Shown here one piece after another: positions 7,001-10,000 of a stretch of DNA of 64,000 nucleotides. Origin of the DNA: Escherichia coli. Lineage in GTDB: Bacteria; Pseudomonadota; Gammaproteobacteria; Enterobacterales; Enterobacteriaceae. Position numbers: made by a program. The stretch's first letter is position 1. Every line of letters begins with the position of its first letter. Location: NCBI RefSeq assembly GCF_017348835.2, contig NZ_CP072312.1, one strand, 5' to 3'.

Positions 7001-10000
7001 CCATCTCCGTCAGACGTTTTTATATCCGGACAGCCCCTCTATGGCCACTTCTGTGCAGTATGCAATACTCGCAGGATATACACTTTTCCCCACTGGCTGT
7101 CGACCTCATAAACCAGAACAAAATGCGGGTGAATAACCAGTTCCCGGGTACCTTCCACACGACCGTTGCGGCCTTTATACGGCTGCCCGGCCAGGCTGCT
7201 GGCTGAATAACCAATTCGTTCGTCCAGTTCAATGGCGGCCATCAGGTTCTGCTCCGCAATGTACTCACGAATGCGCTTCCTGTCCTGGCTGGCCAGCATG
7301 GTCCAGAATATCTCCATCATTTACCGGCAACCTTCCTGCTCATTTCATCCCGCCATGCAGCAGCGGAAGATTCGACCATGTCATGGGGAAGCACATCGCC
7401 GCGCCCGAGTTGCTGACGTCCTGCCTCAACCTGGTCACGGAACCAGGTATTATGCTGCCGTTCAACGGTCTGGCGCATAAAATCCCGGATTAACTGAGAG
7501 CCATTACGGTCCATGCTTTTTGCAGCGGCCATAAAAGCATCCTTCAGTTCAGCGTCGATTCTTAAACTCATATTAACCTGTGCCATTTATCACCTCGTCA
7601 TTACTACGTATATACACAGTATATAACGATTCAGATATCGTCACCAGGATATGCCGCGCCAGCGGCATGGAAGGCGGCACGCTGTGGTTACATGTGATAC
7701 CGGAGTAAAACCGCCGAAGCCCGGCGTAAGCCGGTACTGATTGATAGATTTCACCTTACCCATCCCCAGCCCTGCCAGACCATATCCGCTTTCAGCCATG
7801 ATGGAGCCTCTGTGCGCGGTCGGAGTGGTCCCGACGAGGGTTTACCCGAAGTCAGGGCGTATCTCCGCGTTAGCGGGCCGTCAGGGCCGCTTACGAGCGT
7901 GTACTGAGGACTTCCAGCCAGAAGACTGACAGCGATGAGGATTATTAGTTACAACATTGATAATTAAAAGCGACTCTGTTCCGGCCCGAAGGGCCGGGGC
8001 GGGGCCGCTTTTCAGTTATGAGGGAGGGGCTTTGTGGTTTCGGTTCTGCGCTGGACCGGGGTTTTTCTGGAGGTTGTTTTTGTGTGTTGTAACTAAAGTG
8101 GCTCCGGTCGGGGCCCGCCGCTTGTGGTGGGAGGTGCATATCTGTCTGTCCACAGGACAGGCAGTGAACAGGTTTTCTTTTTAAATGAATGTAATTAAGT
8201 AGTTTAAAGGAGATATAAACAGGTGTTTAAAAGATATATTGCACCCTGTAAGACTGGCGGCTGGCGCTTTATGAGATGAACGGTTGTAACCTTATCGGGA
8301 AGTCCCTTGCAGTTTAATGTGGATAAACAAAATTGCCCGTCTGTGAGACGTGTTTTGCATCAAAAACATGGGGAACGGATGCAGCAGAAGGTGGATGATG
8401 AGGTTGTTTTTTGTATGTAGCGCTGCTTTTTTGTGCGCTGCCGGGCTTCAGGCGTGTGGATGCCTTCGGCGCGGGCCGGATTATTCTGAGGAGGTCACTT
8501 TCAGGGGGAAGCTGTGGCCAGCCGGCTGTAATTACGGTTACGTGACAGAATCATGCGCTCCTTCACACGACGCTCCACTTCGCGTTTTACCGCCTCACGA
8601 TTGTTAGTGAAGCGCCCTTCCGAGATTTCACGCGTCAGCTGCCGTTTCACCAGGGTGACGATATCCTGACGTTCCCTGCTAGCATCACGACGCGCACGGG
8701 CACGCTTTATTCCCCGGGACTTAAGCTCTGTCTGGTAACTGCGGAAACGCTCACGGACAAAACGCCAGGCTTTAGCTATCAGTTCATCCATACCCAGGGT
8801 ATCCAGTCCCTGCTTTTTGCGCTGTCTGTTTTCCCATTCCACACGACTGCGGCGCGCAGCTGCCACTGCATCCTCAGACACATCAAGGGCGGCAAACAGC
8901 CGGTGTGAATGTGATATCGGTCGGAATGTTGCAGCCAATAAGCGGGTCATATTCCGTCTGGTAGGTAATCAGCCCCAGCTCTGACAGGAACGTCAGGGCA
9001 CGGGTGGCTCGGGTGATGGAGAGTGTTCCGGCAGCAGACTCCGTCGCCAATCCGCACTCAATGGCCAGTGTGGTGATGGAGCACTGGACTCGGTTGGCCA
9101 GTGGGTCATAGTGAAAACACAGCCCCTGCAGCAGCGCATCAATGGCCCGTCGACGCAGACCACGCGAACGGGCATGCGCCACATGAATGGCGAAATCAAA
9201 ACGGGAGGTGAAGCCCACCGCCTTTTCCATCAATTTTTCGCAAAACTTCAGCGTTCCGGCACCTTCACGGGGTGTGAATACCGGATTCGGGTTCTTTACC
9301 TGACGGTAATACGTTTGTTGAAGATCAGTCACACCATCCTGCACTTATGTTGCACAGAAGGAGTGAGCACAGAAAGAAGTCTTGAACTTTTCCGGGCATA
9401 TAACTATACTCCCCGCATAGCTGAATTGTTGGCTATACGGTTTATAGATGGCCCCGGTAATCTTTCTAGTCGCCAAACTTGAAGAAGATTATCGGTTTTT
9501 TTGCTTTTCTGGCTCCTGTACGTCCACATCAGAACCAGTTCCCTGCCACCTTACGGCGTGGCCAGCCATAAAATTCCTCAAACGATCAGTAATCTATCAC
9601 GCACACCAGAAACAGGCAAGAATGTGATGTCGCTACATTTTAGTTAACTGAAAGCACTCTTCTGCTTTATCAGTTCAGCAATCATCTCAGCCTGAGTAAC
9701 GCCTTCAGCCTCACACATCTCCTGTAATTGAACTTTTAACGCAGCAGGAATGAATACTCTGAGTTCTTTATGTGTAGCACGTTTTCTTGCCAAGGACGCC
9801 TCCTGACGTTCTGCAAGCGTCAGAGGATTACCTTTTCGGTATGCTCGCTTTGTACCTGATGAGGAAGTTACTGCATTCTCTGTCTGCGACATCTCGCCTC
9901 CTCAATATTTGAACCGGGATCGTTTCGCAGAGGATACTACAGTTTTTTGAAATCAAAAACTTGAGAATTGTGACGAAGATCTGTGTTGGCGCACAAATCA

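Follow-up and report, generated by a model that had tools for sequence, protein, structure and literature searches.

The toxin-antitoxin (TA) module ParDE-I was characterised by Kamruzzaman and Iredell in 2019 on the IncI1 plasmid pJIE512b, and its toxin is variously annotated, YacB being one of its names (PMC6614396). Expressed alone, this toxin inhibits growth, causes a ciprofloxacin-like filamentation and induces recA and lexA, genes of the SOS response; it is neutralised by antitoxin provided in trans, and a version truncated at the C-terminus (201 of the 282 bp) is harmless (PMC6614396). The cloned pair also conferred complete retention on the otherwise unstable vectors pACYC184 and pBCSK+ (PMC6614396). 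Here we describe a yacAB pair at positions 7039-7586 of a 64,000-nucleotide stretch of the Escherichia coli contig NZ_CP072312.1 (assembly GCF_017348835.2), the whole of which is called the window below. The window represents a pO157-like virulence plasmid of enterohaemorrhagic E. coli (EHEC), carrying ehxCABD, etp type II secretion genes, stcE and lpxM/msbB together with many insertion sequence (IS) copies. Published work associates yacAB with the persistence of plasmids as well as with tolerance of antibiotics and heat; therefore, finding the module on a virulence plasmid of EHEC bears on the stability with which that plasmid is retained.

Related loci have been met in several plasmid families. 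The yacAB genes are enriched in ColV/ColBM plasmids (PMC4707298), and on pS88 the gene order is repA1-yacA-yacB-yacC (PMC3438092). In the Shigella invasion plasmid pINV, yacB is frameshifted and the locus inactive (PMC9455713, PMC5658099), and the antitoxin, Orf176, is a type III secretion substrate (PMC9455713, PMC5658099, PMC7354431). The canonical ParD-ParE systems (RK2 ParDE, Caulobacter ParDE1 3KXE, Pseudomonas aeruginosa 6XRW, Shewanella CopA_SO/ParE_SO 7ETR, Vibrio cholerae ParDE2 7R5A) resemble yacAB in having the antitoxin gene first, followed by a ParE-fold toxin gene; their antitoxins are ribbon-helix-helix (RHH) proteins, as YacA putatively is. They also share with YacAB the stabilisation of a plasmid, prophage or chromosome II, and the SOS response with filamentation. 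However, sequence identity to YacAB is only about 20%, and gyrase inhibition, which has been demonstrated for several canonical ParE toxins, is predicted for YacB. Closest to YacB among the solved structures is ParE2 of the E. coli O157:H7 prophage system PaaR2-PaaA2-ParE2 (5CW7, 5CZE, 5CZF), with 31% identity and an end-to-end alignment that includes a C-terminal H-x-x-x-x-P motif. That system has three components, with a separate regulator (PaaR2) and a small, intrinsically disordered antitoxin devoid of a DNA-binding domain (PaaA2), whereas YacA is a putative two-domain RHH protein.

An earlier reading of the sequence (hereafter the original prediction) had placed a two-gene overlapping module of ParDE type at 7039-7586. 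Both open reading frames (ORFs) lie at exactly these coordinates, and we can add that they are on the minus strand:

7317..7586, minus strand: yacA (= parD-I) antitoxin gene, found in the ORF listing and named YacA in pF2_18C_FIB, whose DNA is 100% identical here; the product has 89 amino acids, with an N-terminus of putative CopG/RHH type followed by a helical C-terminal portion
7039..7320, minus strand: yacB (= parE-I) toxin gene, intact; the product has 93 amino acids and belongs to the ParE class of the RelE/ParE superfamily

The yacA stop codon overlaps the yacB start codon by 4 bp (ATGA, 7317-7320), and a Shine-Dalgarno sequence (GAGG, 7593-7596) lies 6 nt 5' of the yacA ATG. The two genes are small, adjacent, co-directional and overlapping, with the antitoxin first, as in a type II TA operon. 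In sequence, they form a single operon that runs in the direction of repA and directly follows the IncFII origin region. The predicted position just beyond that origin was also borne out, with the repA stop at 8501, a DnaA box at 8318-8326, CopA at 9417-9506 and homology to R100 extending to 7597.

This locus is very probably an intact copy of the YacA/YacB module published as ParDE-I, which is the best explanation of the evidence overall. A megablast search of 6900-7800 against PLSDB returned 100% identity to pF2_18C_FIB (NZ_CP043544.1), whose annotation calls one product the antitoxin YacA and the other the toxin YacB. The coding region and leader (7039-7640) matched 2,334 PLSDB plasmid records, most of them 95-99% identical; 1,733 of these matched at least 80% of the query, and the host genera were Escherichia, Salmonella, Shigella and Klebsiella. 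At the protein level, YacA is 94-98% identical to named YacA clusters. YacB is identical at 92 of its 93 residues to a database cluster of 1,713 members, the commonest allele, and its one deviating residue, Q12, agrees with the family consensus. Agreement of this extent, together with the Pfam ParE_toxin match given below, lies well outside what chance would produce. The pair is formed by the same genes as ParDE-I of pJIE512b and YacAB of pS88, pAPEC-O2, pB171-like, ColV/ColBM and pINV plasmids, with equal gene lengths and 95-100% DNA identity across IncF and IncI. The order repA - ori - small ORF - yacA - yacB is likewise common to the window and the known YacAB plasmids.

The tie to the pJIE512b locus rests on three points of agreement. 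First, the following segment was compared with the putative ParDE-I promoter printed in Fig. S4 of PMC6614396, after deletion of the bold letters that machine reading had doubled, and proved to be an exact match:

7581..7650, minus strand: upstream leader and putative operon promoter, identical to the ParDE-I promoter string

Second, the quantitative reverse-transcription PCR primers of the same study match the window at 7460-7479 (no mismatches) and 7538-7559 (one mismatch). Third, the toxin gene is 282 bp long in both. Because promoter string, primers and gene length agree, we equate the module of the window with that of pJIE512b. The module is thus already named, widespread and experimentally characterised, and the finding is real but ordinary. 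The toxicity-and-rescue assay proposed with the original prediction has already been published for the pJIE512b allele (PMC6614396), so that the module as such is not an open question.

The class of the toxin deserved closer attention. Several sources label YacB as "mRNA interferase toxin, RelE/StbE family" or "RelE2", and YacB matches the NCBIfam model TIGR02385 (RelE_StbE) with 31.8 bits, above the cut-off of 27.9, although this is a broad model. These facts favour reading YacB as a ribosome-dependent mRNA interferase of RelE/StbE type. Nevertheless, YacB matches the Pfam family ParE_toxin (E 4e-17, full length), in line with the predicted ParDE-like pair with a RelE/ParE-fold toxin. A whole-library search found 2,138 YacB relatives, and a profile built from 78 full-length homologues was compared with the PDB, where all matches with E < 0.1 were ParE-type:

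E. coli O157 ParE2, 5CW7: E 3e-22
Mesorhizobium ParE, 6X0A: E 6e-11; 5CEG: E 2e-10
Shewanella ParE_SO, 7ETR (chain C): E 8e-11
P. aeruginosa ParE, 6XRW: E 3e-8
Caulobacter ParE1, 3KXE: E 1e-4
Mycobacterium tuberculosis ParE1, 8C24: E 3e-3
Best RelE-type match, 3G5O: E 0.34

The AlphaFold2 (AF2) model of YacB has a predicted local distance difference test score (pLDDT) of 95 and a beta-alpha-alpha-beta-beta-beta topology (strand 3-6, helices 8-22 and 26-42, strands 59-64, 67-74 and 79-87). The modelled chain thus displays the N-terminal strand, alpha-hairpin and three-stranded antiparallel sheet of the RelE/ParE fold, with no C-terminal helix. When this model was searched with Foldseek, the top 18 matches were all ParE-class, with template modelling (TM) scores of 0.78-0.91, the highest being that of ParE2, versus 0.52-0.72 for RelE, YoeB, YafQ and HigB.

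The window itself offers a direct comparison, since it encodes a true RelE toxin (described below). BLASTP found no detectable similarity between YacB and this RelE, and a profile alignment of the two was limited to the beta-hairpin and placed RelE R61 on YacB V68. YacB ends six residues past its last strand, and RelE R81 and Y87, which would require a C-terminal helix, have no counterpart; the ParDE-I study likewise reports no equivalents of RelE R61, R81 and Y87 in the toxin (PMC6614396). Moreover, the published ParDE-I phenotype is one of SOS induction and filamentation, not of translation arrest (PMC6614396). Since the PDB profile matches, the AF2 model, the Foldseek results and the residue comparison with RelE all agree, we classify YacB, by sequence and model, as a ParE-class toxin and not an mRNA interferase, an activity that is scarcely conceivable for this protein. 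For annotation purposes, the pair should be named YacA/YacB (ParDE-I) and placed in the ParE class, against the RelE mRNA interferase label found in many records.

YacA was more difficult to place. Over residues 1-44 it matched RHH_1 with 16.2 bits (cut-off 20.5) and RelB_DinJ with 24.7 bits (cut-off 45.65), and the original prediction of an RHH-type antitoxin holds, as a putative assignment, on these two sub-threshold hidden Markov model matches. The Pfam and NCBIfam ParD models gave no match. In the literature, YacA is classed as CopG/COG3905 (PMC6614396), and its homologues are named "CopG family ribbon-helix-helix protein" in the sources. The two best PDB matches of a 17-sequence YacA profile, 6xrw_B (E 0.03) and 7etr_A (E 0.07), run almost end to end but are individually insignificant; what makes these two antitoxin chains noteworthy is solely that YacB matches the partner toxins in both 6XRW and 7ETR. 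Homologues of YacA and YacB are also co-conserved on one Brenneria contig. Judging from these sequence comparisons, membership of YacA in the ParD/CopG-type antitoxin family is plausible. In an AF2 model of the two chains fused, YacB was confident, and YacA had pLDDT values of 36-68, with a predicted TM score of 0.44 and helices 12-23 and 29-61 at low confidence.

The region upstream of yacA contains two further landmarks:

7609..7625, no strand assigned: inverted repeat TATATAC-N3-GTATATA inside the putative promoter, a candidate operator
7597..7598, no strand assigned: right-hand cassette junction, where R100 backbone homology ends, 11 bp before the yacA ATG

No promoter emerged when 6800-7900 was scanned with a strict sigma-70 consensus, and the promoter candidate GTGACG-15 nt-TATACT was read by eye only. 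Homology between the window and R100 is continuous at 88.5% identity from copB through repA and the origin to 7597. Because the cassette joins only 11 bp before the start codon, the putative yacAB promoter is backbone DNA shared with plasmids that have no yacA. R100, which lacks yacA, carries a counterpart palindrome, TATACA-TG-TGTATA, upstream of tir. We considered the inverted repeat as a YacA-specific operator and gave this up as a firm claim, since 7598-7800 is IncFII backbone shared with R100, where a variant palindrome occurs and yacA does not.

From what is established for the family, the following mode of action can be proposed. YacA would dimerise via its N-terminal ribbon-helix-helix and repress its own promoter, and its C-terminal helices would wrap around YacB. 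Once the plasmid is lost, YacA, being labile, would be degraded, and free YacB would then damage DNA, most probably through poisoning of DNA gyrase, such that plasmid-free segregants would stop dividing. In the present plasmid, yacAB is one of two type II addiction modules; it would work together with an intact RepFIB replicon and a partition system, and independently of the frameshifted repA.

Several observations weigh against this account. All YacA family matches lie under the curated cut-offs, and in the fused-chain model YacA has low confidence. Autoregulation by YacA is putative, considering the negative strict promoter scan and a repeat that sits in backbone DNA also present in the yacA-less R100. 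Gyrase inhibition by YacB is predicted only, from SOS induction and filamentation (PMC6614396), and ParE2, the closest solved relative, was reported neither to bind GyrA59 nor to inhibit gyrase (PMC10886550). Finally, yacAB is inactive in pINV (PMC9455713, PMC5658099) and often truncated elsewhere, and the activity of the copy studied here is presumed from its intactness.

Of all ParE-class toxins on enterobacterial plasmids, YacB is the most widespread, and the gyrase step is the weakest link of its proposed mechanism. YacB might instead be a ParE-fold toxin with a target other than gyrase, which would still make it a post-segregational killer, with SOS induction and filamentation arising via another replication or division target. 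The report of a gyrase-negative ParE2 (PMC10886550) speaks for this alternative, given how near this protein stands to YacB (E 3e-22, TM 0.91, 31% identity). Yet the filaments and the recA/lexA induction caused by ParDE-I resemble the effects of ciprofloxacin and of gyrase-poisoning ParE toxins (PMC6614396). Binding to GyrB, or a requirement for gyrase that is bound to DNA, is known from other ParE toxins, and failure to bind GyrA59 is therefore compatible with gyrase as a target. On balance, we consider a non-gyrase target unlikely. A broader proposal joins such a target to an expression of yacAB that is coupled to the replicon, as for Kid in R1, rather than purely autoregulated. Coupling is conceivable because the promoter and the inverted repeat are backbone sequence, and the two linked possibilities taken jointly strike us as quite unlikely. 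We thus retain gyrase poisoning by free YacB as the most probable, though predicted, route.

The other end of the module lies immediately past yacB:

7002..7038, no strand assigned: end of the conserved yacAB segment on the left; similarity to other plasmids with yacAB sets in at 7002

The conserved segment thus ends 37 bp past the yacB stop codon, where an IS91-family element abuts (transposase 5571/5616..6803). In pAPEC-O2-type plasmids and in pS88, yacB is followed by yacC, a 3'-5' exonuclease gene. Unlike this usual yacABC cluster, the window has no yacC and carries the IS91-family element in its place. This removal of the downstream neighbour is one of the facts that would fit a silent relic, or an anti-addiction, antitoxin-providing remnant of the kind seen in Shigella pINV, where the frameshifted module has been called inactive (PMC9455713, PMC5658099). 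Many plasmids also retain yacA with a truncated yacB, and many truncated or fused YacB variants populate the protein databases. In the window, however, both ORFs are full length, the toxin differs from its commonest allele only by a consensus residue, the Shine-Dalgarno sequence and upstream region are identical to those of the active pJIE512b allele, and the IS junction falls beyond the yacB stop codon. We therefore regard decay of this copy as very improbable and continue to treat yacAB here as an intact module.

More generally, truncated or IS-fused variants of YacB are much commoner than truncated YacA, and where a plasmid matches only in part, it is mostly yacA that is retained and the 3' portion of yacB that is gone; these counts are rough, as many contigs are short. 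The excess of truncated YacB fits a decay of the toxin with retention of the antitoxin, as in Shigella pINV.

At the right-hand junction, R100 carries other cargo than the window. Window position 7597 corresponds to R100 position 90571, after which R100 continues with tir, a CPBP protease gene, and then pemI-pemK. PemI/PemK of R100 and R1 (= Kis/Kid, parD) occupies the same position downstream of the IncFII oriR, is co-directional with repA and serves the same addiction role as yacAB. Nevertheless, the PemI/PemK proteins are unrelated to YacAB, being a MazF-fold endoribonuclease with an AbrB-type antitoxin, and in R100 the tir/CPBP gene precedes pemI. Among PLSDB records, the R100 type of junction was found in at least 3,015 and the yacAB type in 1,733. 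By sequence comparison, yacAB and tir-pemIK are alternative cargo at one IncFII backbone junction, and their addiction modules are unrelated.

Within the shared backbone, the 99 bp at 7702-7800 differ from R100 at one position, against an identity of 88.5% over the replicon as a whole. This stretch overlaps an annotated hypothetical ORF of 52 amino acids (7641-7799), and a GC hairpin followed by a T-run lies at 7712-7726 on the minus strand. In R1 and R100, a primosome or single-strand initiation site is located downstream of oriR. A structured element in the highly conserved 7690-7800 was considered and rejected, as single-stranded DNA of this region folds no better than shuffled sequences (z -0.55).

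The IncFII replicon that precedes the module comprises the following features:

8501..9332, minus strand: IncFII repA, its reading frame disrupted by the loss of 2 bp between 8901 and 8900
8318..8326, minus strand: DnaA box (exact, TTATCCACA), situated downstream of repA in the origin region of the IncFII replicon, to which the ori region of R100 is homologous
9417..9506, plus strand: CopA antisense RNA (Rfam RF00042, 86.4 bits)
9644-9892, minus strand: copB (Pfam RepB-RCR_reg, E 6e-34)
9325-9399, minus strand: tap leader peptide, recognised by translation

The original prediction regarded the IncFII initiator as broken, and it was right in this. In an alignment with the otherwise identical pF2_18C_FIB, the deletion removes GC within GGCGC at 8900/8901, and translation yields a RepA cut to 149 amino acids, consisting of 145 native residues and 4 aberrant ones before a stop. 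A search of 5,426 complete E. coli genomes gave no 100% match to the deletion, and in the nearest relative the frame is intact. The frameshift may be confined to this plasmid, or it may be an error of sequencing, the GGCGC context being compression-prone. In pINV, unlike here, it is yacB that is frameshifted. Relative to RepA1 of R100, this repA lineage also lacks 8 residues (MPPVLRRR).

The suggestion that two addiction modules would help to retain a plasmid with a broken initiator did not stand up. A TA pair cannot replace replication, and a link between the modules and the broken initiator is unsupported. Furthermore, the window contains an intact second replicon and SopAB-like partition genes (57334-59549):

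61804..62781, plus strand: RepFIB (RepB/Rep_3-type) initiator, an intact ORF of 325 amino acids

This region is 99.9% identical to one that bears the annotation RepB family initiator in IncFIB-typed plasmids, and an exact DnaA box is present at 61428. RepFIB is presumably the replicon that maintains the plasmid. In addition, yacAB occupies the same place beside an intact IncFII repA in other plasmids, and hence is a backbone feature and does not serve to make up for the defective repA.

The second pair named in the original prediction is found at the coordinates given there, 60216-60751, and its toxin is a true RelE, but its antitoxin is Phd/YefM/YafN-like and not RelB:

60216..60467, plus strand: second-module antitoxin, 83 amino acids, Phd/YefM/YafN-like
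60464..60751, plus strand: second-module RelE toxin, 95 amino acids

The antitoxin matched PhdYeFM_antitox with E 5e-6 (sub-threshold) and YafN with E 2e-10, and NCBI annotates it as Phd/YefM family. The toxin aligns to E. coli RelE (E 1.6e-31) without gaps over residues 1-93, with K52, K54, R61, R81 and Y87 conserved, and scores 40.5 bits against TIGR02385. The pair occurs in 451 PLSDB records and lies between the SopAB-like partition genes and the RepFIB initiator. Toxin with toxin and antitoxin with antitoxin, yacAB and the second module displayed no detectable similarity, and cross-neutralisation between the two is unexpected for that reason. The plasmid is best read as a RepFIB-driven, pO157-like virulence plasmid whose IncFII replicon has decayed and which carries two addiction modules independent of each other.

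Beyond the IS elements beside yacB, the first 5,000 positions of the window (1-5000) carry cptA and lpxM/msbB as well as genes for a polysaccharide deacetylase and a glycosyltransferase. The yacA gene of Shigella pINV (S. boydii plasmid) is likewise followed, after an IS1, by a polysaccharide deacetylase gene and capU, which suggests an old linkage of yacAB with this cluster for the modification of lipid A and lipopolysaccharide.

The plasmid as a whole has been heavily rearranged by insertion sequences. The ALIL frameshifting pseudoknot occurs six times, marking six IS3-family elements (893-1009, 5034-5150, 26261-26377, 34687-34803, 36114-36230 and 45360-45476). Beside traM, 46464-46575 contains the antisense RNA FinP together with the 5' leader of traJ, and the adjoining transfer region is broken by IS elements; this stretch is a remnant of an F-type transfer control region.

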